NCBI GenBank assembly: GCA_046350795.1
Contig: JAXLZT010000001.1
Location: 309,780-373,779, forward strand
Length of the DNA: 64,000 bases
Direction of reading: 5' to 3'
DNA from: Minisyncoccota bacterium
GTDB lineage: Bacteria; Patescibacteriota; Minisyncoccia; Phycocordibacterales; CALRHW01
Shown: piece after piece, positions 1,661 through 46,666 of the stretch
Numbering within the stretch: position 1 is the first letter of the stretch
Layout of the letters: every line of letters starts with the position of its first letter
The notes under the pieces: generated by a model
Told to the model about the DNA's origin: nothing
The model's database searches: none
Seen by the model: the letters and a program-made list of their open reading frames with translations, nothing else
Program-made: the position numbers and the translations under genes

Positions 1661-1668
1661 TTGTTTTT

Positions 1669-2817: not shown

Positions 2818-3974
2818 GTATTTTGAGATTAAGTGCGATTACTGGGTTTTTTTTACTATTGTTGTATAATAGCCCCATTATGAATTTCACAGATAAATTG
2901 AAGCATTTTCTTGGTCTTTTGCCAGGAAAGGTGAAGATAGGCAAACAATACGTTGGGGTGGGAGAGCCAGTTTTTATAATTGCTGAAGTTGGTATCAATC
3001 ACAACGGAGATATTGAGATTGCCAAAAAGCTTATAGATGCCGCTGCAGATGCTGGCGCAAATGCCGTAAAATTTCAGAAAAGAACCACAAATGAAATTCT
3101 TACAAAAGAGGGTTTGGAAAAGCCGTATACTTCTGTACACGCTTTTGGTCCTACATACGGTGAACATCGCAACAAGCTAGAGTTTACAGAAAAAGATTAT
3201 AAAGAGCTCAAAGAGTATGCAAAAAATAAAAATGTTTTGTTTTTTGCAAGTGCCTGGGATCAGACCAGCGCTGATTTTCTAGAATCTTTTGATGTAGATG
3301 CATACAAAATTCCTTCTGCTGATACTATAAATATCCCACTGCTTGAGTATGTGGCAAAAAAGAATAAGCCGGTTCTTATTTCTACTGGTATGAACACGAT
3401 GGAGGAAATAGAAGCCGCTGTGCGTACAGTACTAAAACACAATCATCGTGTCGTGGTATTCCATTGTTTGTCTCTATATCCGTCACCCGAAGATAAAATA
3501 AACCTTAGTTTTATGGATGTACTCAAACAAAAGTTTCATCCGCTTCCGGTCGGGTATTCTGGTCATGAAATGGAGCTTATGCCTACTCTAGCGGCTGTAG
3601 CGCGTGGCGCAACTATCATAGAAAGACACCTAACTCTTGATAAGACGATGAAGGGTTCTGATCATGCCGCTTCTCTTGAGCCAGCTCAATTAAAAGAATT
3701 GGTTGATAATATCCGACGTATAGAGAAGATTCTTGGTTCTGCAGATAAGACTATTTACGATGAATTAAAACCGTTAAGGGAAAAATTAGCAAAAAGTATT
3801 GCTACTACAAAAGCCATAAAAAAGGGAACTGTGATTACTCGTGATATGCTTACTGTCAAAGGTCCTGGTACGGGTATTTCTCCAGCAAATCTAGATTTTG
3901 TAGTAGGCAAGATAGCAAAAGAAGATGTGGGTGAGGATGTGATATTGCCAAAGACTGCTGTTGATTTAAATTAA
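2814..3974 (+). CDS. N-acetylneuraminate synthase family enzyme (NeuB/PseI/LegI-like, with C-terminal SAF domain)
   Basis: 'PVFIIAEVGINHNGDIEIAKKLIDAAADAGANAVKFQ' is the diagnostic NeuB N-terminal motif, and the C-terminal 'ITRDMLTVKGPGTGISP' is SAF-like. The true start may be the in-frame ATG at 2880 (MNFTDKL...), because the first 22 codons look like a spurious hydrophobic extension. Confidence 0.85.
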   Translation: MSILRLSAITGFFLLLLYNSPIMNFTDKLKHFLGLLPGKVKIGKQYVGVGEPVFIIAEVGINHNGDIEIAKKLIDAAADAGANAVKFQKRTTNEILTKEGLEKPYTSVHAFGPTYGEHRNKLEFTEKDYKELKEYAKNKNVLFFASAWDQTSADFLESFDVDAYKIPSADTINIPLLEYVAKKNKPVLISTGMNTMEEIEAAVRTVLKHNHRVVVFHCLSLYPSPEDKINLSFMDVLKQKFHPLPVGYSGHEMELMPTLAAVARGATIIERHLTLDKTMKGSDHAASLEPAQLKELVDNIRRIEKILGSADKTIYDELKPLREKLAKSIATTKAIKKGTVITRDMLTVKGPGTGISPANLDFVVGKIAKEDVGEDVILPKTAVDLN

Positions 3975-3992
3975 AAATAAAAAGCAAAGAAC

Positions 3993-17422: not shown

Positions 17423-17665
17423 TTAGTCCTCTAAATGTAAAACGTTGAGTTTTTTTACTTGATTTTTATTTTTTCGTGTGTTTGAGTTTTTTGTTCCTAT
17501 TTCTGCGATAAAAGCTTCCACGTCTTCTCTACGATAAACTCGATAGTTATTGATCGGATGTCTGCTTGCTTCAAACTTACCAGATTTGTCCCAATTGCGT
17601 AATGTTAGGGTTGTAACCCCTAATATTTTTGCTGTTTGCTTAATTGTTAAGAATGAATCAGTCAT
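17423..17665 (-). CDS. small helix-turn-helix DNA-binding protein (excisionase/MerR-superfamily HTH_17-like)
   Basis: 'LTIKQTAKILGVTTLTLRNWDKSGKF' is a typical excisionase-family HTH. Length is 80 aa. Confidence 0.6.
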   Translation of the reverse strand: MTDSFLTIKQTAKILGVTTLTLRNWDKSGKFEASRHPINNYRVYRREDVEAFIAEIGTKNSNTRKNKNQVKKLNVLHLED

Positions 17666-17932: not shown

Positions 17933-18901
17933 TTGTTATCCACAAAAAAATCGTTCAAAATGCTTGTTCGAAAAGTTATACTTATAGCAATGAATAACGA
18001 GCTCTATTTTGAAGGAAAAAAGTACATCTCGGCTAAACGAGCTTCTGAATTATCTGGCTATAATTCGGATTATATCGGACAACTCTGTCGTGGGAACAAA
18101 ATTGATGCTAGACGTGTCGGAAGGGGTTGGTTTATTGGAGAAAATTCTATTTTAGAACATAAAAAAAATGCTTCAGAAAAAGTGAGAGGAACCATATCTT
18201 TTCCACCAACAGTAAGCCACTATTTTGATTCAATTTCTGAAAAGGTAAATACTCCCGATCCATCTCATCTTTCTCTGTCCTCTATCTTTGATCCAAAGCT
18301 TAAACAAGCATTGTTTTATTTAGCTCTTGTTCCTTTTGTATCAGCGATATTTTTCTTAGTTAGTATTTCTTATAACAAAAGTTTTCAAGCAAATGTAGCA
18401 GTGGTTTCTGAGAAAATAGTTTCTTTTCAACAAAATCTTGTAGCCAATACAGCGTCACATGTGACTGACTATGTGACACTTGTTGATCAATCATCAGATG
18501 CTTCTTCAGTGAATAAAACATCTTTTGTGATAGGAAAAATTTTTGGCAGTATAGCAAAATCTTTTAATCGCTTGGCTTTGGGTACATATCGTTTTGTGTC
18601 AGCATTGTTTAACTTCGATACGGTAAACACTTTTGTGATGCGTGACACAAATCATTTTGATGGTGTCGCGGATACCGGTACTACAAAAGATTTGGGTGAT
18701 GGTCGTATCGGCATAGTGACATCTCCAAGTACCGGTAATTCAATGGCAGATGAAAGGCTTAAACAAAAAATTAAAGATTCATTTTCAGATGAGACAAAAG
18801 TATATCCAGATGACACAGGCACATCTGGTGTAATAAAGCCTGTATTTAAAAAATCATCTGATCAGGATTATTTGTATGTGGTGGTACCAGTGAGTCCGTA
18901 G
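17933..18901 (+). CDS. hypothetical membrane protein (N-terminal HTH-like segment, one TM helix, Ser/Thr-rich exterior)
   Basis: The ORF has a hydrophobic segment 'LFYLALVPFVSAIFFLVSISY'. No family was recognised, and the start is uncertain (an alternative Met is at MNNELYF). Confidence 0.4.
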   Translation: MLSTKKSFKMLVRKVILIAMNNELYFEGKKYISAKRASELSGYNSDYIGQLCRGNKIDARRVGRGWFIGENSILEHKKNASEKVRGTISFPPTVSHYFDSISEKVNTPDPSHLSLSSIFDPKLKQALFYLALVPFVSAIFFLVSISYNKSFQANVAVVSEKIVSFQQNLVANTASHVTDYVTLVDQSSDASSVNKTSFVIGKIFGSIAKSFNRLALGTYRFVSALFNFDTVNTFVMRDTNHFDGVADTGTTKDLGDGRIGIVTSPSTGNSMADERLKQKIKDSFSDETKVYPDDTGTSGVIKPVFKKSSDQDYLYVVVPVSP

Positions 18902-18996: not shown

Positions 18997-19674
18997 ATGA
19001 GAAAAATAAATGTAAGACAATCAATAGCCACAAGTTTCTTCATTACTCTTACATTGGCGTTTGGTTTTGGGATTATAGAACCAGCGATTACGAGAGCTAT
19101 TGAAGATCAGTTTACTATCACACAGACAATCACTTCAGAAATTTCATTCGTTACAACAACAAACGATGTGGTGATGTCAGGTTCTATTGCCGGTCTCACT
19201 GGAGGTGTGGCATATGGATCTACTACCGTAAGAATCTTTACCAACGATAATGCAGGATTTACTGCAACAATAAAAGCAAGTAGTTCTCCTGCTATGCAAG
19301 GAAATTCTCAAGGTGGAAGTATAGCTGATTACACACCAGCTGTAGCTGGTATACCAGACTATGCGTATTCAGTACCTACCGGCGAAGAGTTTGGATTTAC
19401 TGTGTCAGGAAGTTCTACTTCTTATATGGCGCAAAAGTTTCTAGATAATGCTTCTAACGCATGTAACTTTTCTGGGGGATCTGATACAGGTTCTTCAGCA
19501 ACATGTTGGATGGGTCTATCAACTGTAGCTACTTCCACTCTCGTATCTAATACATTTACTGCTGCTTCAGGTGCAACATCAACATTTGTATTTAGAACAA
19601 CTGTAAATTCTGGTAGCTCACTTCCAGAAGATACATATGTAGCTACAACGACAATTACAGCTACTACAAACTAA
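18997..19674 (+). CDS. secreted beta-rich surface protein, paralogue A (signal peptide; Thr/Ser-rich)
   Basis: It has a signal peptide (FFITLTLAFGFGIIEPAITRA). It shares conserved blocks with 20652..21419 (ITGG..GST.V, TA(T/S)I.ASSSPA, ADYT, PDY.(Y/F)SV, NACN..GSDT...CW..LST, Y.ATTT.TA). Confidence 0.6.
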   Translation: MRKINVRQSIATSFFITLTLAFGFGIIEPAITRAIEDQFTITQTITSEISFVTTTNDVVMSGSIAGLTGGVAYGSTTVRIFTNDNAGFTATIKASSSPAMQGNSQGGSIADYTPAVAGIPDYAYSVPTGEEFGFTVSGSSTSYMAQKFLDNASNACNFSGGSDTGSSATCWMGLSTVATSTLVSNTFTAASGATSTFVFRTTVNSGSSLPEDTYVATTTITATTN

Positions 19675-19683
19675 TTAATTCCG

Positions 19684-20649
19684 ATGAAAGCAAAACAAAA
19701 AAAATACATATTCAGATTGGCCGTTTCAGTCATTGCTATTGTTCTTTTTCTTGTGTCAAAGGGTTTTGTTTCTGCTTATGTGATAGAAACAATTCCTGGA
19801 CAAGATGTATTTGGAGACTTTGTTGCCGGTCCTGGAAAAGTTGAATTAGAAGTAAAACCAGGAGAAAGTGTGACAAGGAATATTACAGTGACAAACAGAA
19901 TGGGCGACACACGTTTTTTCAATTTAGATGTAGAGGATTTTACTGGCTCTAGTGATACAGAGACACCAGTAGTTCTCCTTGGTGATGAAAAGGGACCATA
20001 TTCTCTAAAAGATTATATTTCTTTTCCAGAAAAAACATTTGAATTGAAGCATGGTCAACGTGCTGTCATACCTGTAACAGTATCTGTGCCATCAGATGCA
20101 CAGCCAGGTGGTCTATATGGTAGTGTCCTCTCAAGTACTGTTTCAAAGCCAGGACAAAATGGTGGTGCAAAAAATTCCATTATTGCTCGTATAGGAACAT
20201 TGTTTTTTGTTACTGTACCTGGTCCAGTGAATCATGAGGGATCTCTTAAGGAATTTTCGACAAAGGGTTTGCAAAAGCTCTTTGGGTCTGGACCTATAGG
20301 TTTTAGATTACTTTATGAAAATAAAGGAAACGTTTACGTGAATCCATCAGGAGAAATTCGTATTCGTAATCTGATGGGAAAAGAAGTTGCAAACATTGAG
20401 GTTGAGCCTTGGTTTGCAATGCCAAACTCACTTCGTTCACGCGAGGTAGAGTGGAAAAGTTCTTTCTTAATTGGAAAATACACCGCAACAGCATCTATAG
20501 ATAGAGGATATGACAATATTGTAGATACAATGGAGTTTTCTTTTTGGGTTATCCCAGTAAAACTCTTGGCTCTTTTTGTTGTCGTGCTCGCAATATTTAT
20601 TTTGGGCGTAAGATTTATAATCACTCGATTTGAGATCAGGAAGAAGTAA
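19684..20649 (+). CDS. cell-surface protein with signal peptide and C-terminal TM anchor (Ig-like/DUF916-DUF3324-like architecture)
   Basis: It has an N-terminal signal/TM segment, a predicted beta-rich ectodomain (VELEVKPGESVTRNITVTN...DVEDF), and a C-terminal hydrophobic anchor 'LLALFVVVLAIFILGV' followed by a basic tail. Confidence 0.55.
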   Translation: MKAKQKKYIFRLAVSVIAIVLFLVSKGFVSAYVIETIPGQDVFGDFVAGPGKVELEVKPGESVTRNITVTNRMGDTRFFNLDVEDFTGSSDTETPVVLLGDEKGPYSLKDYISFPEKTFELKHGQRAVIPVTVSVPSDAQPGGLYGSVLSSTVSKPGQNGGAKNSIIARIGTLFFVTVPGPVNHEGSLKEFSTKGLQKLFGSGPIGFRLLYENKGNVYVNPSGEIRIRNLMGKEVANIEVEPWFAMPNSLRSREVEWKSSFLIGKYTATASIDRGYDNIVDTMEFSFWVIPVKLLALFVVVLAIFILGVRFIITRFEIRKK

Positions 20650-20651
20650 AA

Positions 20652-21419
20652 ATGTCTAAGACAAAGATTTACATTTCATCATTTATCTTAACAGTGCTTT
20701 TTGCTTGGATTATTTCTGAAAAAATTTCTTTTGCTCAAATGACCGGTACTGCTTATAAAATTCAAAGCGACAGTATAAATTTTGGAGGAGGGTATTCTAC
20801 TTCCACTACTTATAGAGGAGAAAGTACTTTAGGAGAAATGTCTACAGGAGACTCGGAGAGCACAAACTACAAAATGTATGCTGGTTATCAGCAGATGCAA
20901 AGGGTATATATCGCCATCTCTGCTGTGTCAGATGTGACTATGAGTTCAAGTCTTGGCGGTATTACTGGAGGTACTTCAAATGGTTCTACAAATGTGACAG
21001 TGACTACAGATAGTCCGTCAGGATATCAACTCACTATTACAGCTAGTTCATCACCAGCCTTGGTTTCTGGTTCAAATAGTTTTGCGGATTATACGGTGGG
21101 TACACCTGGTACCCCTGATTACAATTTTTCTGTTCTCGCTACTGATTCTGAGTTTGCTTTTTCTCCAGAGGGTACAGATATTGCAAACAAGTATAAAGAT
21201 AATGGCACAAATGCTTGTAACACTGGATCGAGTGACACAGCAGATAAGTGTTGGGATGCACTTTCTACAAGTGCTCAGGTTATCGCAAATAGAACTTCTG
21301 GTAACCATCCTTCCGGTACGGTGACCACTATAAAGTTTCGTGCAGAGTCTGGTGCATCACATTTACAGCCAGAAGGTGTTTACACAGCCACTACTACCGT
21401 AACAGCATTACCTCTATAA
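20652..21419 (+). CDS. secreted beta-rich surface protein, paralogue C
   Basis: It is a paralogue of 18997..19674 (same ordered motif blocks) and has a signal peptide. Confidence 0.6.
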   Translation: MSKTKIYISSFILTVLFAWIISEKISFAQMTGTAYKIQSDSINFGGGYSTSTTYRGESTLGEMSTGDSESTNYKMYAGYQQMQRVYIAISAVSDVTMSSSLGGITGGTSNGSTNVTVTTDSPSGYQLTITASSSPALVSGSNSFADYTVGTPGTPDYNFSVLATDSEFAFSPEGTDIANKYKDNGTNACNTGSSDTADKCWDALSTSAQVIANRTSGNHPSGTVTTIKFRAESGASHLQPEGVYTATTTVTALPL

Positions 21420-21424
21420 AAATA

Positions 21425-22984
21425 ATGACTAGGTTTATCAAAATAATCTTTATAGCAATAATAGCATGTGGTTTCTTTTCTTTTACTCATGCAGCAGAAG
21501 ATACATTTCAGATAACCCAGACCATTATTAGTTCGGATTCAACAGCTCCTTCTGTGCCGACAAATCTTGTAGCTACTGCAGTATCTAGTTCTCAGATAGA
21601 TCTTTCATGGACAGCTTCTACGGATGTTGTGGGTGTCACGGGATATCAAGTATTTAAAGATTCAGTTTTTCTCGCTACATCTACTGGTACAACATATTCA
21701 AGCACAGGACTTTCTCCAGAAACAGCTTACACATACACAGTGACCGCGTTTGATAGTTCATTAAATATATCTGCACAGTCAAATCCAGCCACAGCGACCA
21801 CTCTAGCAGTAGAGGTTGCTCCTCCTACTGATACGGGCGGTAGTAGTGGAACACAAATGTTGATTCTTCTAAATCTCACAGTTGAACCCTCTCTGTACGG
21901 TTCTCTTATACAGTTTGAGACCAATCTGTATTCTCAGGCGGTAGTTTCTTGGGGGCTCACTCCAGATTATGAAATGGGAAGTCTAGCAGAGCAGTCTCTC
22001 ATGACAAATCACTCTATTAATATAGAGGGGCTCACTCCAGGTACTCTTTACTACTTTAAAATAGATCTCACTGATAATTTTGGACGGAAGCTTTCTCTAA
22101 ATAATCAGACATTTACTACAAAGTCTTTGCCGGATACTACGCCACCACAAAACGTTACAAATCTGTATGCGATAGGAAATGAGCAGACCATCAATCTATC
22201 ATGGAACAATCCAAACCTTGATTTTGATGAAGTACGTATTGTGCGTTCAGACAAATTTTATCCACAAGATTTGTTTGATGGAAAAATAATATACGAAGGT
22301 AGTGATGAGCAATTTCCAGATACAGACGTTATATATGGAAAATGGTATTACTACACACTCTTTGTAAAAGATTCCTTTGGCAACTATTCATCTGGAGCGG
22401 TGGCAAAAGCGAGACTCTATAAGATAGGTGAAAAAAAAGAAGAGGGAAATCTGTTTGAAGATATAAAAGAAATCGCAGGGGCGCTAGTCCATCCACTTAT
22501 AAAAGGTTTGACACTTCTTGATTTGGATTTTTTCCAAAACGGAAAAAAGCTCACTGTAAATTCAAATACTGTAGAGATACAGGGAGACAGAGAGTTAAAA
22601 ATTTCTCTAGCATACAACAAAGTGCCAGAAATTTTAAAAACCATTGCTCTTACTATGAGAGATCCGGATGATAAGACAAAAACTTTTTCTTTTCTACTCC
22701 GGGTAAACAAAGACAAGACAGCGTATGAAGCGACCATTGCGCCTCTCGGCCGATCAGGCAACTTCGAGTTTGGTATTGCTATCCTAGATCACAAAAATCA
22801 GGGATTAAAAAAACTAGCCGGAGTCATTGTGTCACTAGTGCCACATCTCGGGCCAGAGACAGATATTTCTTGGGTAATGTTTATTGAATGGATAAAAAAT
22901 AATTTTGCGACAATCATTGTTACATTGCTTCTCATTGTCTCAATTTACTTTGGTTTTAGGTTTGCACGTGCACTTAAAAAATAA
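21425..22984 (+). CDS. surface protein with fibronectin type III domains and C-terminal TM anchor
   Basis: FN3 signatures are 'PSVPTNLVATAVSSSQIDLSWTAS...GYQVF...TYTYTVTAFD' and a second copy 'PPQNVTNLYAIGNEQTINLSWNNP'. The N-terminal post-signal motif 'AEDTFQITQTI' is shared with paralogue A ('AIEDQFTITQTI'). A C-terminal TM helix is present. Confidence 0.6.
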   Translation: MTRFIKIIFIAIIACGFFSFTHAAEDTFQITQTIISSDSTAPSVPTNLVATAVSSSQIDLSWTASTDVVGVTGYQVFKDSVFLATSTGTTYSSTGLSPETAYTYTVTAFDSSLNISAQSNPATATTLAVEVAPPTDTGGSSGTQMLILLNLTVEPSLYGSLIQFETNLYSQAVVSWGLTPDYEMGSLAEQSLMTNHSINIEGLTPGTLYYFKIDLTDNFGRKLSLNNQTFTTKSLPDTTPPQNVTNLYAIGNEQTINLSWNNPNLDFDEVRIVRSDKFYPQDLFDGKIIYEGSDEQFPDTDVIYGKWYYYTLFVKDSFGNYSSGAVAKARLYKIGEKKEEGNLFEDIKEIAGALVHPLIKGLTLLDLDFFQNGKKLTVNSNTVEIQGDRELKISLAYNKVPEILKTIALTMRDPDDKTKTFSFLLRVNKDKTAYEATIAPLGRSGNFEFGIAILDHKNQGLKKLAGVIVSLVPHLGPETDISWVMFIEWIKNNFATIIVTLLLIVSIYFGFRFARALKK

Positions 22985-22987
22985 AAA

Positions 22988-25900
22988 ATGAATTTCATTA
23001 TTAAAAACATAATAAAAGCAAGACGTCTTTTCAAAAAGAGCGTTGTTGTTTTTGTGGTGTTTGTAATGGTGATCACTCAGATTTTTGCTGGTGGAATTGT
23101 TTTCAAAAACAATATTGCAGAGGCGGCGATAAATAAACAGATTAATTATCAAGGAAAACTTACAAATACAAGCAACGTGGCTGTGGCAGACGGCACATAC
23201 CACATGAAGTTTTATCTATATACTGTGGCGACGGGCGGATCACCTGTATGGACTGAGGATAGAAGTACTGCTGTCGGAGATCGTGTGGCTGTTACTAACG
23301 GTTTGTTTAGTGTAATGCTCGGTAGCTCTACACCGCTTACTAGTGTTGATTTCAATCAGACTCTTTATCTTGGCGTAGAAATAGGTGGATCATCAGGTTC
23401 TCCTTCATGGGATGGCGAAATGACTCCTAGAAAAGTAATAGGCGCAGTACCCGCTGCTTTTGTGGCTGATACTCTAGACAATATTTCAAGCGAGCAGTTT
23501 TTGCGAGCTGATGCAAGCAATTCAACATCTACCGCTACATCATGGCTTTCTTTTGTACAAAACGGTGCTGGCAAGATAGCTGAATTTTTTGGTCCTAGTT
23601 CTGCATCTGTGCTTTCTATATTAAGTGGAGGAAACGTTGGTGTGGGCACATCATCTCCATATTCAAAACTTTCTGTGGCAGGAAATGTTGTTGCAAATAA
23701 TTTTTATGCAACCTCATCTAATTCTTACAACTATTTCATGGGCACAACTACAGTTGGTACGCTTAGTCCTTCTTCAAAACTCACCGTATCTGAGGGTAAT
23801 TATCTGGTAGAAATAGCTGATTTGGATGATCAGAGGGGTCTGCATGTTTCTGATGGAGGTAACTCTGCAAGTATAGTAGACTCATCAGCTGGCGCTGGAA
23901 TAAGTGCTACAGGTGGCACCTATGGAGTGTTGGGTTCAAATAACTCTGCTAGTGGATATGCGATTTTTGCACAACAAGACAATTCTGCTGGTTATGGAAT
24001 CTGGTCATCTGGTGGTCAAAATTATTTCCAAGGAAATGTTGGTATTGGAACATCTTCTCCTTATGCGCCACTTTCTGTACTTGGTCAAATAGTAGGATCA
24101 TATTTCACAGCCACAACATCTATAGCATCTACATTCCCATATGCTTCATCTACTGCGCTCACCGTATCTGGCACAGGATATTTTGGGACTGCTTCAACAA
24201 CAAACCTCACCGTTTCTTCAGCACCAAACTGTAGTGGATCAAGTGCTCTAAATACAAATTCATCAGGAGTAGTGTCCTGTGGAGCTATTACAGGATTTTC
24301 TACTTTCTCTTATCCTTTCACTTCAGCCACAAACTTCGGAGTAAATACTTCAGCTACATCTACAGCACTCTGGGCACAAGCTGGTATATTTGCTTCTTCT
24401 ACTTCGTATTTCCCACTAGGTACTTGGAGATCAGATGGTTTTGTGGGTATCGGCACATCTTCTCCTTTGTATACTTTGCATGTTGCTTCTACTACTAGCG
24501 CTACCACAGGTGTGCAGGATGTGATGGCTGTAGAGATTACTACTTCTGGAAACCCAGCTGCTGGTTTTGGTCCAAGTATTCTTTTTAAAGATGCTGGTGC
24601 AAATGCAGATCACTTGGCAAGAATAGCAGCGGTGTATGAAGCGATTTCTGGTGGAGGTGGAACAAAAGGAGGAGCGCTTTCTTTCTACACAAATCCTTCT
24701 GCTACAGCCGGATCAGCAAATCTTGCTGAAAGAATGAGAATTTCTCTTGATGGTAACGTCGGCATCGGCACCACATCTCCATACGCAAAACTTTCTATTG
24801 TAGGTCAGGTAGTAGGTGCATACTTCACTGCAACAACATCTACAGCTTCTACATTCCCATATGCAAGTACTACTGCTTTGACTGTCTCTGGTACTGGATA
24901 TTTTGCTGGATCTGGTATTTGGAATTCTTCTGGTTTCCTTGGTGTGGGAACTACATCTCCATGGGCACAGCTATCAATTAATCCAAACGGTATTGGTTCA
25001 GGTCCATCATTTGCGATAGGTTCTTCTACAAAGACGGATTTTATTGTTTTAAATAATGGTCGGGTTGGTGTAGGTACTACTTCTCCAGCTGGAACATTTG
25101 CAGTGCAAGGTAAAACAGGTGGATCTAACGGTTTGGGCGCTGGTGACAATATTTTCTTGACTGCTGGTACTGGAAATATCGGTAAGGGTGGAAAAGTTAT
25201 TATTACTGGAGGTTTGGGTGGAACAACTGGACTCAACCAAGATGAAGCTGGGGGAGATATTTTGATTACTGCTGGAAGTGCTAATTATGTAGATGGTGTA
25301 GGTAATGGTGGTAACGTATTTATTGATCCAGGTGCAAATTCACCAGGCGGTATTATTGGAAATATTCTTCTCGCTACTACAAATGCTGGCAACGTCGGCA
25401 TCGGCACCACATCTCCGTATGCAAAACTTTCTGTCGTTGGACAAGTCGTTGCGTCATACTTCATCGCAACATCATCTACAGCGTCTACATTCCCATATGC
25501 AAGTACTACCGCTTTGACTGTTTCAGGAAGTGCGTACATCGGATCTCTCAATGGTCCACTTCAAGCAAACAACGGTCTTGTATCCGCAACATCTTCAATA
25601 GGTGTACTGTATGGTGGCACAGGACTTACTTCTGCTCCTTCATATGGTCAGCTTTTATTGGGAAATTCTTCTAGTGGTTACACACTTACCGCAACATCAT
25701 CTCTCGGTCTTTTGAGTAGTTCTGCCATAGGTACAGGATCTATTGGTCAATTTCCATATTATGCTGGATCAGGAAACACACTCACTGCAACATCAGGGGT
25801 AATCATTAATACTTTAGGAAACGTTGGTATAGGTACTACTTCTCCCGCTAATTCTTCAAAGCTTGGTGTCGCGGGTAATACATTTATTGGTGGCACTCTT

Positions 25901-28900
25901 ACTACGACCGGTGCGATTACATCTGGTGCTGGTATTAGTTTGACTGGCGATATAAATATTAGTGCTGCGACAAATAGATCAATAACTGCAAGTGGAGATG
26001 GTGTTACAGCCGGATCTTTCACTATTCAAGGTGTAAACTCTTTCGGCTCTGCGCCAGGCTCATTAAAATTGATAGCTGGAAGTGATGGTGACACTGCAAA
26101 TGCTGGTGCAAATATTTATATAAGTGGAGGAACTGGTTCTAGTGATGGAAATGTAATTCTTGGGCACAATGGTTCTCAGAATATTGGCAACGTTGGCATC
26201 GGCACCACATCTCCATATGCAAAACTCTCCGTCGTCGGCCAAGTCGTTGCGTCATACTTCACAGCGACATCATCTACAGCGTCTACATTCCCATATGCAA
26301 GTACTACAATGATCACTGCTACCACAGCAAGTACTACCAATCTAACAATCTCAGGTATATCAGGTTGTAGCGGATCCAACGCTCTTACTACAAATTCATC
26401 TGGCGTCGTAGCTTGTGGAGCTATTTCAGGGGGTGGTGGAACATTCCCATTCACACCTACAACAAACTTCGGAGTAAACACTTCAGCTACATCTACAGCA
26501 CTTTGGGCACAAGCTGGTATATATGCTTCTTCTACTTCTTATTTCCCACTAGGCACTTGGAATTCATCTGGATCACTTGGTGTAGGTACCACATCTCCTT
26601 GGGGACTTTTGTCTGTTCAGGGTCTGTCAGATATTCCTCAGCTTGTTGTAAAAGCAAACAGCACACAAACATCAAATCTCTTTGAGCTAAGAAATAGTTC
26701 TGGATCGAGACTTTCTAGTATTAGTGGTACTGGTTATACATTTAAAGTGAATGAGACTGGTGCTGTGACTACAATAGGTGGATATCCGGGCAGTGAATCT
26801 ACTTATTCTGGCGTTTGGCTAGCGCAATCTTCTCCAAGTGGATCAAATTATTCTTTGTTAGCTGATACTTCTGATACTTACATTAATGCGCCAGTATCCA
26901 ACTTAAGATTCCGTATTGGTAATAGTGAAAAAGTTGTAATTTCTGATTCTTCTGGATTTACTGCGTATGATATTTATTCAACAAACGGTGCTATTTTAAC
27001 AAATAGAAGTGGACAATTTTACATAGACAATTTAAATGCATCTGGGGATATTATTATGCGTCCAGGAAATAAAACAGAAAGTGCTAGATTTACATATGGT
27101 GGTTTTGTGGGAATAGGTACCACATCTCCATGGGCACAGCTTTCTATAAATTCAAACGGTATCACTGGTCCATCATTTGCAATCGGTTCTTCTACCGCAA
27201 CATCTTTCTTGGTGGATAATGGCGGTGGTGTGATGGTGGGTACAACAACACATCTATCTACAGATAAATTGGCTTTAAACGGTGGAAATTTTTATATTAG
27301 AAATCTTACACCACAGTTTGTGTTGCGAGATACCGCGGTTAATGATCAAAACTTTGGAATGAGAATGCAAAGTGGTACGGCCTCATTCTTTAGAGCAAAT
27401 AACGACAGTTCACTTTCTGCTTTCTTGCTTGGTATGGATGTAAATAATGCATACACAGGATTTGCTACATCAGCGCCAAAGGCTCGTATATCTTTGTTGC
27501 GTGGCACAACTGCTGCTGAAGGTATTAATTTTGGAGATGATGTTAATTTATACAGAAGTGCTGCAGATTCACTTAAGACAGACGACAACTTTTATGTAAG
27601 CACAGGAATTGTGCTTGAGGCGGGTTCAAGTGGTCGCATTTATGCAAACGGAGGTTTGGTAAATCTTTCTAGTGCAAGTAATTCACGCGTTCGTACTACA
27701 GATACAGGTGTGGCAATAGATAGAGATATCGCAGATGGTTCTACAGCGCTTTATGTAAAACAAATCAATGCTAGTGCTACAGGTAATATATTTGAATTGG
27801 CAAATAGCTCTGCGACTACAACTGTATTTACTCAGGCTGGTTTGCTTGGGTTGGGTACTACATCTCCATTTGCAAAGTTATCTATTCATTTAAAATCTAC
27901 TGAAACATACGGAAATATTTTTGCTATTGCTTCTTCTACAGCGAGCGCAACCACAACACTATTTACTGTATCCAACACAGGAGTAACAACCATAGGTGAT
28001 TCTGCTGGTACTGGAGATTCAAATATGCAGTTTGCAAATGACAATGATGCATGGTCAATAGGTTATTCTTCTGCAAATAAAGCGTTTAACATAGCATCTT
28101 CTACTTCTATTTCTACAAACGTTGGATTTACAATAACAAAGGGCACTTCTTTGGCGGTTGGAATTGGTACTACCACACCGTGGAAAGCTTTTTCTGTAAA
28201 CGGCGCCGTTGGTTTTGATGGTCTTACAAGCTCTATAGGAGCCGGATCACTTTGTCTAACTTCAAATAAAGAAGTTGTTTACAATTCAGGTACAGATGCA
28301 TGTTTGTCATCTCTACGCAGTACAAAACACGATATCACAGCTCTTCAGGTAGATGCTTTGTCTTTGATTAATGGTTTGGAAAGTGTGTCTTTCGTATACA
28401 ACGATGGCGATGGTCGTGTCAGATATGGATTTATTGCTGAGGATACTGCAGCTGTAGATCCGCATTTGTCTACATATAATGAATTCGGTAATTTGAGTGG
28501 TATTGATGATCGTGCTATTGCATCTATTTCTGTAAAAGCTATCAAGCAACTAAATATAAATCTAGAGAGCCTGGCTAGTTCAACCCTTGTTTTCGATGAA
28601 GATGCTGTAGAAGGTTCATCAGCTTTCTTTGCTAAAAAGTTCTTCGACAACGTCTTTGCGCGTGTTACAGAATTTTTTGCTGATGCTACAAATGGTGTAG
28701 GAAATATGTTTGCGAATGTATTTATGGCAAAAGAGAAAATCTGTGTTGATGATCAATGTTTGACAAAAGACGATGTAAAGAAGCTTTTGATTATGGTTAA
28801 TAATTCGAATTTTAATAATGAAGATGGTGAAGATGAGGGTGGTTCAAATGGTCACGACAATAGCTCTGGTTCGCCTGTTATTAAATTAAATGGTGAAGAG

Positions 28901-29356
28901 ACTGTGAATATTTTTGTGGGAGATGATTATCAGGATGAAGGTGTAACTATCACTGATGATGAGGATGATAACCTAAGCTATAATATTTCTTTAGATAATG
29001 AGAGCCCTGTAGATCCAGAAGATTTTGAATTGGATACTGATTATCGTGGTGAGCATGAGTTGGTCTTTAGTACAACGGATAGTGATGGAAATACAAGTAC
29101 AATTACTCGTACGGTTATTGTAAAAGAGAAAAATGATAGCTCCGGTGGTGGAAATGGTGGTGACGATGATAGTGGTGATAATTCTGGTGGTGACTCAGGC
29201 GGTAACTCAGGAGGTGATTCATCTGACAATACTGGTAATGATGGTGGTTCTGATGGTGGGGGTGATGCAGATTCAGGTCAGCGTAATGATAAATTGGATA
29301 GCGGTTCTGGTGATAATGCGGGATTTTCAGGAGATGAAAAATCTTCAGAAATTTAA
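22988..29356 (+). CDS. giant (2122 aa) repeat-rich fibre-like surface protein with C-terminal intramolecular-chaperone (peptidase S74-like) domain, Ig-like (DUF5011-like) domain and acidic Gly/Ser/Asp-rich tail
   Basis: It has an N-terminal signal-anchor. It contains at least 5 copies of the ~45-aa repeat 'NVGIGTTSPYAKLSVVGQVVASYFTATSSTASTFPYASTTALTVSG'. Near 28.3-28.57 kb the block 'SSLRSTKHDI...SFVYNDGDGRVRYGFIAEDTAAVDPHL...ISVKAIKQL' matches the consensus of the tail-fibre/endosialidase auto-cleaving chaperone domain (S.DxRxKxxI ... GFIAQEV...). This is followed by 'PVIKLNGEETVNIFVGDDYQDEGVTITDDEDD...TSTITRTVIV' (DUF5011-like). Confidence 0.85.
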   Translation: MNFIIKNIIKARRLFKKSVVVFVVFVMVITQIFAGGIVFKNNIAEAAINKQINYQGKLTNTSNVAVADGTYHMKFYLYTVATGGSPVWTEDRSTAVGDRVAVTNGLFSVMLGSSTPLTSVDFNQTLYLGVEIGGSSGSPSWDGEMTPRKVIGAVPAAFVADTLDNISSEQFLRADASNSTSTATSWLSFVQNGAGKIAEFFGPSSASVLSILSGGNVGVGTSSPYSKLSVAGNVVANNFYATSSNSYNYFMGTTTVGTLSPSSKLTVSEGNYLVEIADLDDQRGLHVSDGGNSASIVDSSAGAGISATGGTYGVLGSNNSASGYAIFAQQDNSAGYGIWSSGGQNYFQGNVGIGTSSPYAPLSVLGQIVGSYFTATTSIASTFPYASSTALTVSGTGYFGTASTTNLTVSSAPNCSGSSALNTNSSGVVSCGAITGFSTFSYPFTSATNFGVNTSATSTALWAQAGIFASSTSYFPLGTWRSDGFVGIGTSSPLYTLHVASTTSATTGVQDVMAVEITTSGNPAAGFGPSILFKDAGANADHLARIAAVYEAISGGGGTKGGALSFYTNPSATAGSANLAERMRISLDGNVGIGTTSPYAKLSIVGQVVGAYFTATTSTASTFPYASTTALTVSGTGYFAGSGIWNSSGFLGVGTTSPWAQLSINPNGIGSGPSFAIGSSTKTDFIVLNNGRVGVGTTSPAGTFAVQGKTGGSNGLGAGDNIFLTAGTGNIGKGGKVIITGGLGGTTGLNQDEAGGDILITAGSANYVDGVGNGGNVFIDPGANSPGGIIGNILLATTNAGNVGIGTTSPYAKLSVVGQVVASYFIATSSTASTFPYASTTALTVSGSAYIGSLNGPLQANNGLVSATSSIGVLYGGTGLTSAPSYGQLLLGNSSSGYTLTATSSLGLLSSSAIGTGSIGQFPYYAGSGNTLTATSGVIINTLGNVGIGTTSPANSSKLGVAGNTFIGGTLTTTGAITSGAGISLTGDINISAATNRSITASGDGVTAGSFTIQGVNSFGSAPGSLKLIAGSDGDTANAGANIYISGGTGSSDGNVILGHNGSQNIGNVGIGTTSPYAKLSVVGQVVASYFTATSSTASTFPYASTTMITATTASTTNLTISGISGCSGSNALTTNSSGVVACGAISGGGGTFPFTPTTNFGVNTSATSTALWAQAGIYASSTSYFPLGTWNSSGSLGVGTTSPWGLLSVQGLSDIPQLVVKANSTQTSNLFELRNSSGSRLSSISGTGYTFKVNETGAVTTIGGYPGSESTYSGVWLAQSSPSGSNYSLLADTSDTYINAPVSNLRFRIGNSEKVVISDSSGFTAYDIYSTNGAILTNRSGQFYIDNLNASGDIIMRPGNKTESARFTYGGFVGIGTTSPWAQLSINSNGITGPSFAIGSSTATSFLVDNGGGVMVGTTTHLSTDKLALNGGNFYIRNLTPQFVLRDTAVNDQNFGMRMQSGTASFFRANNDSSLSAFLLGMDVNNAYTGFATSAPKARISLLRGTTAAEGINFGDDVNLYRSAADSLKTDDNFYVSTGIVLEAGSSGRIYANGGLVNLSSASNSRVRTTDTGVAIDRDIADGSTALYVKQINASATGNIFELANSSATTTVFTQAGLLGLGTTSPFAKLSIHLKSTETYGNIFAIASSTASATTTLFTVSNTGVTTIGDSAGTGDSNMQFANDNDAWSIGYSSANKAFNIASSTSISTNVGFTITKGTSLAVGIGTTTPWKAFSVNGAVGFDGLTSSIGAGSLCLTSNKEVVYNSGTDACLSSLRSTKHDITALQVDALSLINGLESVSFVYNDGDGRVRYGFIAEDTAAVDPHLSTYNEFGNLSGIDDRAIASISVKAIKQLNINLESLASSTLVFDEDAVEGSSAFFAKKFFDNVFARVTEFFADATNGVGNMFANVFMAKEKICVDDQCLTKDDVKKLLIMVNNSNFNNEDGEDEGGSNGHDNSSGSPVIKLNGEETVNIFVGDDYQDEGVTITDDEDDNLSYNISLDNESPVDPEDFELDTDYRGEHELVFSTTDSDGNTSTITRTVIVKEKNDSSGGGNGGDDDSGDNSGGDSGGNSGGDSSDNTGNDGGSDGGGDADSGQRNDKLDSGSGDNAGFSGDEKSSEI
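23634..26310 (+). repeat. intragenic ~140-bp coding repeats (>=5 copies; copies at ~24755, 25391 and 26189 are ~90% identical at nt level)
   Basis: Direct comparison shows aacgt(c/t)ggcatcggcaccacatctcc(a/g)ta(t/c)gcaaaact(t/c)tc... recurring at 24755, 25391 and 26189. More diverged copies lie at 23634 and 24035. Additional repeat pairs are 24335/26468 and 24960/27125. Confidence 0.85.
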
Positions 29357-29362: not shown

Positions 29363-30964
29363 ATGAAAAGAACAAAACAAAAAATATATAAATTTACAGT
29401 GTCTCTAATGTTGTTGTTTTTTATATTTTCTTTTAAGAGCGTTTTTGGTGGAGATTATATAAAAACAGTTACAGATTTTATGGCTGATGGTACATGGACT
29501 GCTCCTACTGGAGTGACAAATATATCTATAGAAGGATGGGGTGGAGGCGGTGCGGGTGCAGGTAATACTGCCGATACTGTTTATGGTGAGGGAGCGGGTG
29601 GAGGCGGTGCTTATGCAAAAATAAATTCTTTTACTGTGACTCCTGGATCAGACTACACTGCAGATGTGGGTGCTGGTGGCGTAGGTAGCACTGGTCAAAA
29701 TGTAGACGGTTCGGATACTACTTTCAATAGCACTACCATGGTGGCGGACGGTGGTCTCGGTGGTTCTAATGAAGGTGGTGGCAACGGTGGAGGTGCTGGA
29801 GGTACCACGGGCAATAGTACTGGGGACGTGGAATATGCTGGTGGATCCGGTGGAGCCGGCGGTGGGACTAATATTGGATCTGGTGGAGGTGGTGGAGCCG
29901 GTGGAGCCGGAGGAGCCGGAGGAGTCGGCGGTAATGGTTCTTCGGGTGTGGGAGGAACAGCTGGTGCCGGTGGTTTGGGTCTTGAGGCTATTTATAATTT
30001 TTTATGGAATATTGGTGGGGAAGGAACTACTGGTTCAACCTCTGGACGTAACGGTAATCCCGGTGCTTATCCTGGTGGTGGGGGTGCTGGTGCATATGTT
30101 AACAACAGCACGGATCGCACTGGTGGAAGTGGTACTGCGGGTAAGATAGCTATTACATATGTAGAACCTTCTAGCTCGGGATACCCACAGTTTGTCAGTA
30201 AAAGTGTTTTCGCTACATCTACCGCTACTTCTGCCACAGTACCTTTGCCACCAGGTTATCTAAAGGGAGATCTAATACTTTTTTTTATTGCCGGTAGACC
30301 GTCCGGTAGCGCGGGGTCAAATGACACTATTACAGTACCCGCTGGCTGGACTCAGCGCGGATCACGACAAAGACTTGAAGTGGGTATACTTGATGCAGTT
30401 TCAGAGTTGTGGTACAAGGTGGCTACTTCTACAAATGATTCAAATACTGTGAGCGTTGGAACAGCTTTTTCTGGTACTGAAGGTTGGGTTATGCAGACAT
30501 TTGCTTACCGTGGTGTCAATCAAAGCTCTCCTTTCTCTGCTACAAATGTGGGCGGAACTAATGCATCATCAGTTACTTTTACTCCCACCGGTGCTACTCC
30601 TGCACCATTAAACTCATCAAACAGATCGAGAGTTGTAACTTTTGTATTATCTACTGATAATAATATGCTCGCTTTTGATTCATCTAGAGGATTTCTTACT
30701 CGTGCTGGATCAAATGAGGCTGTCGGATCTACGATTGGATCAACAGCTGTTGCCCCCGCAGTTTCTCTATATGTTGCTGATCAAGCAACAACCACTACGA
30801 GTGCTGCTACCATGCCCGTTTTTGAACAAGTGATTAATGGAGCCGATGGTTGGCTGTATATTAGTGAAGCTCTTGAGCCTGCACCACCATCAAAAAATCT
30901 AGTTACCTTTGGTGCTAAAATTTTAAAAATAATTGGAGGTAAGTTGATACTAAACCAGCAATAA
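29363..30964 (+). CDS. secreted glycine-rich protein with 'TWTAPTGVTNISIEGWGGGGAG' motif (Gly_rich-type, as in actinophage minor tail proteins)
   Basis: It has a signal peptide and long Gly-rich tracts (GGSGGAGGGTNIGSGGGGGAGGAGGAGGVGG). Its start is 7 nt after the giant gene's stop, so it is probably co-transcribed. Confidence 0.7.
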   Translation: MKRTKQKIYKFTVSLMLLFFIFSFKSVFGGDYIKTVTDFMADGTWTAPTGVTNISIEGWGGGGAGAGNTADTVYGEGAGGGGAYAKINSFTVTPGSDYTADVGAGGVGSTGQNVDGSDTTFNSTTMVADGGLGGSNEGGGNGGGAGGTTGNSTGDVEYAGGSGGAGGGTNIGSGGGGGAGGAGGAGGVGGNGSSGVGGTAGAGGLGLEAIYNFLWNIGGEGTTGSTSGRNGNPGAYPGGGGAGAYVNNSTDRTGGSGTAGKIAITYVEPSSSGYPQFVSKSVFATSTATSATVPLPPGYLKGDLILFFIAGRPSGSAGSNDTITVPAGWTQRGSRQRLEVGILDAVSELWYKVATSTNDSNTVSVGTAFSGTEGWVMQTFAYRGVNQSSPFSATNVGGTNASSVTFTPTGATPAPLNSSNRSRVVTFVLSTDNNMLAFDSSRGFLTRAGSNEAVGSTIGSTAVAPAVSLYVADQATTTTSAATMPVFEQVINGADGWLYISEALEPAPPSKNLVTFGAKILKIIGGKLILNQQ

Positions 30965-31384: not shown

Positions 31385-31412
31385 GGCCCGCCTAAAGCGG
31401 GTCTTTGTGTTT
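31385..31412 (+). terminator. rho-independent terminator after rnpB
   Basis: The sequence is ggCCCGCctaaaGCGGGtctttgtgttt. Confidence 0.7.
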
Positions 31413-31494
31413 GAGTAGGTATAAAAATAGATTGAGTTATAGCCACCGATTTTATATAATAGTATGTATTAAGTCATTTATCTTTATAAAAAAT

Positions 31495-33924
31495 ATGGAA
31501 GAAATAAATAAAGGAGGATTGGGTATAAGGTCGATTTTTAGATTAGAAAATCTTCCAACCTTTTTTATACTACTTTTAGTTTTTCTTCTACCTTTTTTCT
31601 TTATTCCTTCTGCACATTTTTCTGTATTATCTAGTAAAACCATCCTGACCTTCACCCTCGTTATTGTTTCTCTATGTCTTTTTCTCGTTTCTATTTTAAA
31701 GAAGGGTAAATTTAGTGTGCCGGCAAGTAAAATGTATATTTCAGTCGCTTTGGTTCCCATTGTGTTTTTAGTTTCTGCAATTTTAAGCAGGGTGCCTTCT
31801 ATGTCTATAATGAGTTTTGGTTATGAGACGGGTACGTTTTGTTTTATTTTGGCCATGTTTCTTCTTTTGTTTTTGTCAGCGAACCTATTTCAATCTGAGA
31901 AAAACACCTTCTATTCTTATTTAGCGTTGTTCGCTTCATTTTCTCTTGTATCCCTGTTTCATATTGTAAGATTATTTTTCGGTCCTTCTGTTTTATCTTT
32001 TGGTTTTTTTAATGCACCAACACAAACTTTTTTGGGTGGTTGGTATGATTTGTCTACTTTTTATGGTATTACATTGATTCTTTCTCTTGTAAGTATAGAA
32101 ATGCTTAAGGTCAGTGGTCTTTTAAAAATTTTATTACGGGTGGTCTTTTTTGTTTCTTTCTGTTTCATTGTAATAATAAGCTTTTCTGTGCTTTGGGTTG
32201 TTTTGGCATTTTTATCTTTGATATTTTTTGTTTATATTTTTTCTTTTGAGCAGGTATCAAGTGTGGGAGAAAAAAGATTGGGTAACGATGGAGAGATAAT
32301 ACATATTTCAAAAAGTGATGGAAATTTAAGAAAGATATCAATTTTAACTTTAGTTGTTTTAATAGTATCTTGTCTCTTTTTGACTCCACTCGTAAGTAGT
32401 ATAAGTAGTTCAATATCTTCTACTTTTAACATAGTAAATATAGAGGCCAGACCTTCATGGGGTGCCACACTAGATGTTTCAAGAAATGTCTTGAAAAACG
32501 ACGCTTTCTTTGGTGCTGGTCCAAATACTTTCGTCTCACAGTGGCAACTTCTAAAACCAACACCTATAAATCTTACCCCTTTCTGGGATACAGACTTTAA
32601 TGTTGGTATAGGTTTTATTCCTACTTTCCTTTCCACCACAGGTATTTTGGGTATATTGAGTTGGTTTATTTTCTTGGGTTTCTTTTTGTATGCTGGTTTT
32701 ATATCACTTTTTGCGCGTGGTGAGACTGGATTTGCAAAGTATCTTACAGCATCTTCTTTTTTCGTTTCTTTGTATCTCTGGATTATTGCTATTGTTTATA
32801 CTCCAGGTACTTCTATTATCGTCTTAACTTTTTTCTTTACCGGACTATTTTTTGCTTCTTTGCATAGAGAAGGTTTTTTGCGATCTATTCCTGTATCTTT
32901 TTCTGCTTATCCGCGCGCAAGCTTTGCTATGGTGCTTTCTTTGGTGCTTGTAATGGTAGCTACTCTTTCACTCGGTTATTTCTTTGCTGAAAGGACACTT
33001 TCTTCTTATTATTTTTCAAAAGGTATTTATGCTGTATCTCAGAAAAATGATATAGAGAATGGAGAGTTATATATTTCAAAAGCTATTAGTTTGTGGGGCA
33101 ACGATATTTATTTTAGAGGTTTTTCTGAGTTGCAGATTATGAGATTGAGCAATATCGTAGCTAGTGTAAAAGGGGACCAGGTTTCAGATGAAGTAAAAAA
33201 TGAGTTTCAAAGAGTCCTCGGATCAGCTATAGATAGTGCAAATAAAGCCGTTCTATTTAATCCTGCAAATTATCAAAATTGGATTTCTGTGGCGCGAGTA
33301 TATGAGTCAGTGAGTCCTTTGGGTATAGATCAGGCATATGAAAATTCTGTGAAAGCTTACAATGAGGCGATAAAGGCGAGTCCGCAAAATCCAAAGATTT
33401 ATCTTATGCTTGCACGTCTTGAAGCTAGTAAAAATGATTTTGTGAAAGCAAAAGAATATCTCGCACAAGCGCTTGCACAGAAGCCGGATTATACAGAAGC
33501 GATATTTTTTAGATCACAGATAGAGGTGGCTGAAGGTAATATAAAAGGGGCAATATCTTCTATGGAGGGCATAGCTCTTATTTCTCCAAATGATGCCGGC
33601 GTATTTTTTGAACTTGGTTTGTTAAATTATAATAATAAAGATTTTGCTAGGGCTGTCAGCGCTTTTGAGAGAGCCATTGTTTTGGTACCTCAATACTCAA
33701 ATGCAAAATATTTCTTGGGTTTGAGTTATGAAAAGCTTGGTAGGAGGGCAGATGCTATAGCTCAGTTTGAAGGTATATCTGTACTAAATCCAGACAATGC
33801 AGAGGTTGCTTTGATTTTAAAAAATCTAAGAGCGGGTAGGGGTGCATTTACCGATGCCGAACCGCCCGTAGATGATAAACCAGAAAAGAGGAGCAAGCTA
33901 CCGGTAGATGAATTAGAAAATTAG
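31495..33924 (+). CDS. large polytopic membrane protein with C-terminal TPR-repeat domain (second O-antigen-ligase/PMT-like TPR membrane protein in the window)
   Basis: It has >12 predicted TM helices. The C-terminal ~280 aa are TPR-like (…AYNEAIKASPQNPKIYLMLARLEASKNDFVKAKEYLAQALAQKPDYTEA…). Start is taken at the in-frame ATG 31495 (MEEINKGG...); the track start 31405 reads through the promoter region. Confidence 0.6.
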   Translation: MEEINKGGLGIRSIFRLENLPTFFILLLVFLLPFFFIPSAHFSVLSSKTILTFTLVIVSLCLFLVSILKKGKFSVPASKMYISVALVPIVFLVSAILSRVPSMSIMSFGYETGTFCFILAMFLLLFLSANLFQSEKNTFYSYLALFASFSLVSLFHIVRLFFGPSVLSFGFFNAPTQTFLGGWYDLSTFYGITLILSLVSIEMLKVSGLLKILLRVVFFVSFCFIVIISFSVLWVVLAFLSLIFFVYIFSFEQVSSVGEKRLGNDGEIIHISKSDGNLRKISILTLVVLIVSCLFLTPLVSSISSSISSTFNIVNIEARPSWGATLDVSRNVLKNDAFFGAGPNTFVSQWQLLKPTPINLTPFWDTDFNVGIGFIPTFLSTTGILGILSWFIFLGFFLYAGFISLFARGETGFAKYLTASSFFVSLYLWIIAIVYTPGTSIIVLTFFFTGLFFASLHREGFLRSIPVSFSAYPRASFAMVLSLVLVMVATLSLGYFFAERTLSSYYFSKGIYAVSQKNDIENGELYISKAISLWGNDIYFRGFSELQIMRLSNIVASVKGDQVSDEVKNEFQRVLGSAIDSANKAVLFNPANYQNWISVARVYESVSPLGIDQAYENSVKAYNEAIKASPQNPKIYLMLARLEASKNDFVKAKEYLAQALAQKPDYTEAIFFRSQIEVAEGNIKGAISSMEGIALISPNDAGVFFELGLLNYNNKDFARAVSAFERAIVLVPQYSNAKYFLGLSYEKLGRRADAIAQFEGISVLNPDNAEVALILKNLRAGRGAFTDAEPPVDDKPEKRSKLPVDELEN

Positions 33925-33931
33925 ACTAAAA

Positions 33932-46661: not shown

Positions 46662-46666
46662 ACAGT

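Follow-up and report, generated by a model that had tools for sequence, protein, structure and literature searches.

The Pam pili from the candidate phyla radiation (CPR) represent the closest described relatives of the locus reported here, a set of four genes, A to D, found at positions 18997-22984 of a 64,000-nucleotide stretch of DNA from a Minisyncoccota bacterium (assembly GCA_046350795.1, contig JAXLZT010000001.1, positions 309,780 to 373,779; henceforth the window). Electron cryomicroscopy has solved two Pam filaments from Ca. Mycosynbacter amalyticus, a Saccharimonadia parasite (Troman et al., bioRxiv 10.64898/2026.03.03.709456). The same preprint proposes that the pilins PamA, PamB and PamE are joined by donor-strand exchange without an usher, that PamT is a single-domain tip, that PamC and PamD are PapD-like chaperones with C-terminal transmembrane (TM) helices, and that the fibre is terminated and anchored by PamR, a protein of two FnIII domains with a strand at its N terminus and a TM helix at its C terminus. 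It further reports a tail-fibre-like gene and ATP-synthase genes near the pam operons; its stress is on Saccharimonadia and Microgenomatia, and WxL and DUF916 go unmentioned in it.

The locus maps one to one onto this scheme, all of its genes lying on the plus strand: A (18997-19674, 225 amino acids) corresponds to a pilin, B (19684-20649, 321 amino acids) to PamC/D, C (20652-21419, 255 amino acids) to PamT, D (21425-22984, 519 amino acids) to PamR, and the gene for a giant tail-fibre-like surface protein (22988-29356, 2,122 amino acids) to the tail-fibre-like neighbor. Like the Pam system, it is CPR-specific, Sec-exported and usher-less, with a C-terminally TM-anchored protein of PapD-like fold (B), a single-domain putative tip from a family homologous to PamT (C), an anchor candidate (D, set beside PamR by its architecture) in which FnIII domains are combined with a strand at the N terminus and a TM helix at the C terminus, paired cysteines in the pilins and a tail-fibre-like gene next to it.

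Taking together the homologies, predicted folds, topologies, strand distribution, co-variation and synteny detailed below, we propose that the locus probably encodes an usher-less, chaperone-assisted, donor-strand-exchange pilus of a monoderm CPR bacterium. In this pilus, all parts would leave the cell via Sec, with B remaining held in the membrane by its C-terminal helix and capping the incomplete β-sandwich of fresh subunits with a strand of its own, in the manner of PapD and FimC, of PamC/D and, by prediction, of WxLIP. As C has an acceptor domain and no donor strand, it could only start a fibre, of which it would form the distal tip. Because A combines an acceptor domain with a donor strand at its N terminus, it is likely to polymerise head to tail. 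Finally, since D has a donor strand and is equipped with a TM helix at its C terminus but lacks an acceptor domain, it might insert into the last A, stop growth and tie the fibre to the membrane through its FN3 stalk. The fibre may also have a role in host attachment.

Subunits and the segment shared by A and D

The open reading frame (ORF) listing agrees with the first-pass annotation of this DNA in placing four packed plus-strand genes here, with gaps of 9, 2 and 5 nucleotides between A and B, B and C, and C and D. Hydropathy shows no more than an N-terminal signal in A and C; in B and D, the signal is joined by a TM helix at the C terminus, with a basic tail. The signals of A and C are of the ordinary n-h-c Sec type ending in small-x-Ala, and neither C terminus (...TATTN in A and ...TALPL in C) carries a hydrophobic tail. 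A, the putative major polymerising pilin, is laid out as a Sec signal (residues 1-34), a putative donor strand (35-51) and a pilin-like β-sandwich of about 170 residues with the pair Cys156-Cys170, giving a mature protein with a single domain of about 190 residues. The cysteine pair is conserved in both the A and the C families, and a DsbB gene lies 8 kb upstream of the operon. A and C are indeed the signal-peptide paralogues that they had been taken for at first: BLASTP aligns them at 40% identity over 161 amino acids (E=2e-27), and their family profiles align with each other at E=3.8e-52, A52-223 being paired with C89-253 by hhalign.

In the AlphaFold2 (AF2) model of A, which has a predicted local distance difference test score (pLDDT) of 80.8, a signal helix is followed by residues 32-48 outside any strand and then by a β-sandwich. 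About 30 of the top 50 Foldseek matches of this model in the PDB are chaperone-usher pilins, and the matches, which have probabilities of up to 0.99, include CfaB, FimG, FimF, FimA, the pilin domain of PapGII, PapA, PapH and CsuA/B. The modelled fold thus weakly resembles that of donor-strand-exchange pilins. At the level of sequence, no Pfam domain was found in the A family, A and C members had no match to the Pfam WxL, Fimbrial or SCPU models, and PDB searches with A, C and the profiles of both families returned nothing useful. Two other kinds of pilus were rejected: a sortase-dependent one, as A and C lack LPXTG and Sortase families were not found in Pfam scans of the window ORFs, and a type IV pilus, as A and C lack a class III signal (G|F..E) and type IV pilus genes were not found among the window ORFs.

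A peculiarity of the A signal is Glu28-Pro29 (nucleotides 19078-19083), at the end of its hydrophobic core, which is invariant in 66 of 66 aligned A homologues. Such conservation is unusual for signal peptides; the D signal has no Glu-Pro, and the C-family consensus has no conserved equivalent. One possibility is that it slows cleavage or flags the subunit for capture by B.

C, the putative tip subunit, has behind its signal an N-terminal module that is conserved (residues 29-88, nucleotides 20736-20915; YKIQSDSINFGGG...NYKMYAGYQQMQ) and then a pilin domain at 89-255. It matches the NCBIfam model NF058579 (“CPR-type pilus protein PamT”) at E=4e-8 and 32.9 bits, and divergent C homologues and representatives do so at E values of 1e-8 to 1.5e-14 (19-54 bits), the match of P0505 spanning positions 5-237 of the 241 in the model. 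As these scores are far below the 240-bit equivalog cutoff of PamT, C belongs to a sister family of PamT rather than to PamT itself. D, the putative terminator and membrane anchor, comprises a signal, an N-terminal strand (residues 24-35), an FN3 domain (Pfam fn3, E=1e-11), a second FN3-like stretch and a TM helix at 489-517 (nucleotides 22889-22975), which upholds the FN3 domains and C-terminal anchor initially assigned to it. It has no pilin (acceptor) domain, and in architecture, the level at which the two were compared, it matches the description of PamR.

Directly past their signal peptides, A (AIEDQFTITQTI) and D (AAEDTFQITQTI) have 11 of 18 residues identical. The putative donor strand of A is encoded at 19099-19149 on the plus strand (IEDQFTITQTITSEISF) and that of D at 21494-21529 on the same strand (residues 24-35; AEDTFQITQTII). 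This common segment, already noticed at first pass, is kept in both the A and the D families across 22 genomes. The A-family consensus, IEDQFT(I/V)TQx(I/V)TxEI(S/A)F, is among the best-conserved stretches of the family and has an alternating pattern of hydrophobic residues, and D homologues have A(A/V)EDxFx(I/V)xQx(I/V) just ahead of the first FN3 domain. C lacks the segment, as seen from the A/C profile alignment, which starts only at A52/C89, and has a 60-residue PamT-like module in its place. The presence of the strand in A and D and its absence from C is the distribution expected for a rod subunit, a terminator and a tip, respectively.

Further, the strands of A and D vary together. In the 22 genomes, the A and D strands of the same genome have 6.14 of 10 residues in common, against 4.75±0.23 under shuffled pairing; in 20,000 shuffles the observed similarity was never attained. 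The parallel substitutions include FEIHQ/FEVHQ, FTVKQ/FTVKQ, QLTITQ/QLHVTQ and FIVSQ/FIVSQ (A/D). Recent gene conversion as the source of this likeness is ruled out: the two segments, as they stand in the window, are identical in their DNA at only 24 of 48 positions, which makes selection on the protein the likelier cause. Co-variation between the strand and the pilin body was scored as mutual information with average product correction (MI-APC) in 166 A-like sequences (effective number of sequences 112), over about 24,000 pairs. The top 25 of these pairs contain E36-K93, Q38-A94, S47-D84 and I45-V203; E36-K93, which joins the strand to the pilin body, has rank 16. In the genomes with E36 (15 of 15), the equivalent site of D is E, D or Q and a Lys is present at A93 and/or C130; in the seven without E36, D never has E and the Lys is present in one (Fisher p=9e-5, uncorrected for phylogeny).

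The pilin domain of A and C is also found at the C terminus of much longer relatives (P0388, P0506, P0499, P0471, P0425 and P0495), whose N-terminal parts carry passengers such as β-helix domains, choice-of-anchor Q domains and PARCEL repeats; relatives of 440-1566 amino acids with a passenger-strand-domain layout were found elsewhere. They are of two kinds, with either the donor strand or a PamT-like module behind larger N-terminal domains, and both arrangements resemble PamA/B and two-domain tip adhesins. This suggests that the long relatives are interchangeable adhesive tips and decorated rod subunits. In P0388, P0506 and P0499 the segment shared by A and D sits between the passenger domain and the C-terminal pilin domain, hundreds of residues into the protein (in P0388, of 948 amino acids, “DSQFQIGQTISEEIAF” stands near residue 757), an arrangement that recalls, by analogy, the inter-domain linker strand of PamA/B. 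Across these comparisons, the shared segment behaves as a donor strand.

Protein B and alternative readings of the locus

The second point of comparison is provided by the WxL/Csc clusters of Lactobacillales and Listeria, which comprise a small WxL protein, a large WxL protein, a WxLIP and an LPXTG protein. B, for which we predict the role of a membrane-tethered chaperone, begins with a signal and continues with two domains of β-sandwich type, at residues 33-178 and 186-289, and with a TM helix at the C terminus (292-315; nucleotides 20557-20628), and its AF2 model (pLDDT 91.1) has the same two domains and C-terminal helix, in line with the Ig-like ectodomain and anchor first ascribed to it. 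The window B matches the Pfam WxLIP_PGBD (DUF916) family at E=1.7e-4 and 22.1 bits, under the gathering score of 27.3; however, PF06030 is matched by 80 of 80 aligned members of the B family (best E 1e-7), and the B-family profile recovers Enterococcus faecium EfmWxLIP1 from the PDB (9i25_C and 9i1y_A) at E=1e-7 over the DUF916 domain. The best Foldseek matches of B in the PDB are again WxLIP (9i25_C and 9i1y, about 3e-12), in an alignment of 265 columns that covers both domains. They are followed, at 1e-9 to 1e-6, by the chaperone-usher chaperones CfaA, CsuC, DraB, CupB2, FimC, Caf1M, SafB, PapD and SfaE. None of the 80 family members matches DUF3324 or PapD_N. By both sequence profiles and Foldseek, then, B is a genuine distant homologue of WxLIP/DUF916.

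The last strand of domain 1 of B, at residues 167-178 (IIARIGTLFFVT), has invariant R169 and F175, and it is preceded in the AF2 model by a lower-confidence loop at 154-166. By analogy, we suggest that residues 154-178 are the equivalent of the F1-G1 loop and the G1 strand in chaperone-usher chaperones. Hassan et al. (2023, PMC10599100) predict that the WxL β-sandwich has a gap, which a hairpin strand of WxLIP fills; such filling is strand complementation in the chaperone style.

The first-pass annotation had likened the whole locus to Gram-positive WxL/DUF916 complexes. The parallel stands for B, a sequence and structure homologue of WxLIP (DUF916-DUF3324-TM), and the logic of the WxL clusters, small secreted paralogues with a C-terminally anchored partner, is likewise seen in the pairing of A and C with the anchored two-Ig protein B. 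It does not extend to A and C: two W-x-L motifs occur in 0 of 66 A and 0 of 61 C members, in accord with the earlier remark that canonical WxL motifs are not evident, and neither protein matches the Pfam WxL family (PF13731), by which A and C were rejected as WxL proteins. Further differences are that sequence searches do not recognise domain 2 of B as DUF3324, that an LPXTG protein (CscD) and a sortase were not found here and that D is anchored by a TM helix. WxL proteins are not known to polymerise, nor are WxL clusters known to have a D-like anchor with a matching strand.

These likenesses underlie the strongest alternative, namely, that the locus encodes a non-polymeric surface complex of the WxL type, in which B holds A and C by strand insertion, D and the giant protein are independent and there is no fibre. 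Besides the homology of B, it draws on the prediction that WxLIP completes the WxL sandwich with its own strand (PMC10599100) and on the layout of the WxL clusters, where a domain-only protein is paired with long proteins having the domain at their C termini, just as the A/C domain is C-terminal in its long relatives. We nevertheless consider it unlikely, as A and C lack both WxL motifs and a Pfam WxL match, and as it leaves unexplained the co-varying A/D strand that is absent from C, the pilin fold matches of A and the PamT match of C.

As an extension of the pilus proposal, DUF916/WxLIP tethered chaperones might represent one ancient usher-less pathway of strand complementation in monoderms, with the Paceibacteria locus, Pam and the Firmicute WxL/Csc clusters as its branches; we offer this tentatively and regard it as doubtful. 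Were it true, WxL proteins would be pilin-like clients, possibly forming short strand-exchanged oligomers, and WxLIP would be a chaperone and not a passive linker. Through its homology to WxLIP, B in any case ties the Pam pilus of the CPR to the WxL clusters, which have long been a puzzle in enterococci, listeriae and lactobacilli.

A second alternative, put forward at first pass, takes the segment shared by A and D for a processing or sorting signal; more generally, it might be a sorting, processing or chaperone-recognition tag, with A, C and D being separate adhesins that form no common polymer. In both A and D the segment directly follows the predicted signal-peptidase site, and the invariant Glu-Pro lies just upstream in the A signal peptides, as might befit a tag. 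We hold this to be highly improbable: the secreted paralogue C does without the segment, pilin-body residues vary together with the segment, and its internal position in P0388, P0506 and P0499 excludes an N-terminal sorting or processing signal. Nor did Pfam scans of the window ORFs yield the dedicated signal peptidase or sortase expected to co-occur with such a signal. The sole S24-like peptidase (46909-47550), considered as a candidate, was rejected, as it sits in a distant defense island and is repressor-like.

The most improbable alternative is a matrix fibre like those of TasA (Bacillus) or of archaeal threads and cannulae (CanA), in which A would self-assemble by strand donation and have no need of B, which, like D, would be an unrelated wall protein. 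These fibres too are built from β-sandwich subunits with strand donation, and TasA (8aur) and CanA (9h8b) are among the weak fold matches of A, but both rank under many chaperone-usher pilins. The SipW peptidase on which TasA depends has no counterpart found in Pfam scans of the window ORFs, and the chaperone-like fold of B, the constant adjacency of A and B and the matching strand of D would all be coincidences. The fibres also differ from the locus in lacking a dedicated two-Ig chaperone and a membrane anchor with a matching strand. Each of the three alternatives misses at least one of the distribution of the strand in A, C and D, its internal position in the long relatives and the constant pairing of A with a chaperone fold.

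Conservation and comparison with pilus systems

We compared 29 related loci, on contigs chosen by an A homologue at 37-83% identity and with labels that include Parcubacteria, Paceibacteria, Zambryskiibacteriota, Nomurabacteria and Kaiserbacteria. The gene order U-A-B-C-D, where U encodes a membrane protein upstream of A, is kept in 29 of 29 of these outside loci, as far as each contig reaches; it is also kept in one Nomurabacteria locus without the upstream Obg-GatB context. The first-pass annotation had named a lack of co-conservation in other genomes as evidence against itself; given the conserved order, what is found is the opposite. U adjoins A on the 5' side in nearly all related loci, and the giant gene is 3' of D in most of those with a contig extending past D. 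When clustered at 90% identity, the families have at least 333 (A), 1164 (B) and 1359 (C) clusters, and an exhaustive search with the A-family profile found the pilin domain in 655 representative clusters (50% identity, E≤1e-3). The near-identical proteins in NCBI (MFO0718751-54) are every one annotated as hypothetical. The locus is thus a widely conserved gene set and not a chance arrangement.

Several parallels are offered by the chaperone-usher pili (Fim, Pap, CFA/I, Csu and Caf1). The fold of A is like that of their pilins and the fold of B like that of their chaperones; the subunit logic is likewise the same, with a donor strand of alternating pattern at the N terminus, a disulfide that is conserved, a strandless tip and a non-accepting terminator. 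In contrast to these pili, there is here no outer membrane, the putative chaperone is membrane-tethered and not soluble, and the putative terminator is a TM-anchored FN3 protein and not a pilin like PapH. An outer-membrane usher domain was not found in Pfam scans of the operon or the window ORFs. As the A and B families have no match to the Fimbrial and PapD_N/C families of Pfam, the likeness is one of fold only. The locus falls outside strict membership of Pam pili, WxL clusters and chaperone-usher pili alike. The earlier suggestion of an undescribed analogous system needs to be qualified to this extent, that there is a described relative, the CPR Pam pilus, with C being homologous to its tip pilin PamT.

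A number of points weigh against the proposed pilus and its kinship with Pam. The fibre is predicted here from genes and modelled folds, and the structure models are of single chains, with the acceptor groove and the strand insertion being putative. The fold matches of A are weak, the best having E=1.8e-3, none reaching 1e-3 or lower and the TM-scores being 0.2-0.5. The co-variation statistics ignore phylogeny, and the genomes without E36 represent perhaps three to four independent events. Against NCBIfam, A, B and D have no match to any Pam model, even when divergent homologues are searched at E values up to 10, and C, at about 33 bits, and its homologues are far under the PamT cutoff. The makeup of the system also differs. 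A is a pilin of one domain whose strand is N-terminal, whereas in PamA and PamB (39 and 55 kDa) an N-terminal domain, a linker and a C-terminal domain follow one another and the linker between the domains is donated; there is one pilin and one chaperone here versus three pilins and two chaperones in Pam; the lineage is Paceibacteria; and ATP-synthase genes were not found among the ORFs scanned in the window. Weighing these against the correspondences, we regard the locus as most likely a minimal, stripped-down relative of the Pam pilus, Paceibacteria-wide, whose donor strand is N-terminal and whose chaperone is of the DUF916 type.

Paceibacteria count among the most abundant lineages of the CPR and also among the least understood, host attachment included. 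The thin “pili-like” appendages of ultrasmall cells are usually ascribed to type IV pili. The locus provides a concrete and widely conserved candidate for a second type of fibre in these bacteria. With one putative pilin, chaperone, tip and anchor each, it would also make a tidy test case for usher-less donor-strand exchange.

Neighboring genes and genomic context

The locus is, as first described, directly upstream of a giant surface protein, whose 2,122-amino-acid ORF begins 3 nucleotides past D. This protein has an N-terminal TM helix or signal, many repeats and Peptidase_S74 and Bact_surface_Ig-like domains (Pfam). The repeats are near-identical (GNVGIGTTSPYAKLSVVGQVV...STASTFPYAST), Peptidase_S74 is a tail-fibre chaperone domain, and the tail of the protein is acidic and rich in Gly, Ser and Asp. 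In one locus (L027), a giant-like gene is instead upstream of the operon. Six nucleotides past the giant gene begins that for a secreted glycine-rich protein (29363-30964, plus strand, 533 amino acids) with a signal peptide and a Pfam Gly_rich_2 domain (PF21722, E=1.6e-12); the two genes possibly form one transcription unit. A scan for promoters and terminators was uninformative, with fewer promoter-like sites than in shuffles.

On the other side of the operon, U (17933-18901, plus strand) encodes, by hydropathy, an HTH-like cytoplasmic N terminus, a TM helix (residues 123-148) and an extracellular C-terminal part; no match to it was found in Pfam or NCBIfam. U is duplicated in the loci L018, L020, L023 and L024, and it is often preceded by a divergent MerR/HTH_17 gene (17423-17665 on the minus strand of the window). 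It is possible that U and the MerR/HTH_17 gene are regulators or extra components of the system.

The operon is also flanked by cell-envelope genes (81-6185 and 31405-35614). Those upstream encode NeuB, a cytidylyltransferase, a glycerophosphotransferase-like protein, a Wzy_C+TPR protein, MurB, SecA and DsbB, and those downstream a large polytopic TPR protein and MurJ. Since A and C are Ser/Thr-rich, the fibre might conceivably be glycosylated, as was seen at Ser356 of PamA (bioRxiv 10.64898/2026.03.03.709456).

Ten of the related loci (L005, L006, L008-L011, L017, L019, L022 and L023) come from third-party annotation metagenome-assembled genomes titled “uncultured Candidatus Saccharibacteria bacterium.” These titles are probably automatic misassignments, because both synteny and sequence group the records with Parcubacteria/Paceibacteria.

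Farther downstream, the window has a dense defense and mobile island (45253-59740), set in a small CPR genome. It includes a Thoeris pair on the minus strand (ThsA_Macro at 45253-46161 with ThsB_TIR at 46158-46661), the S24 repressor-like peptidase mentioned above, a DNA methylase, a DEAD/Terminase_6C protein, a large serine recombinase, the Shedu protein SduA (52735-53916) and a complete type I restriction-modification system, HsdR/S/M (53922-59740).

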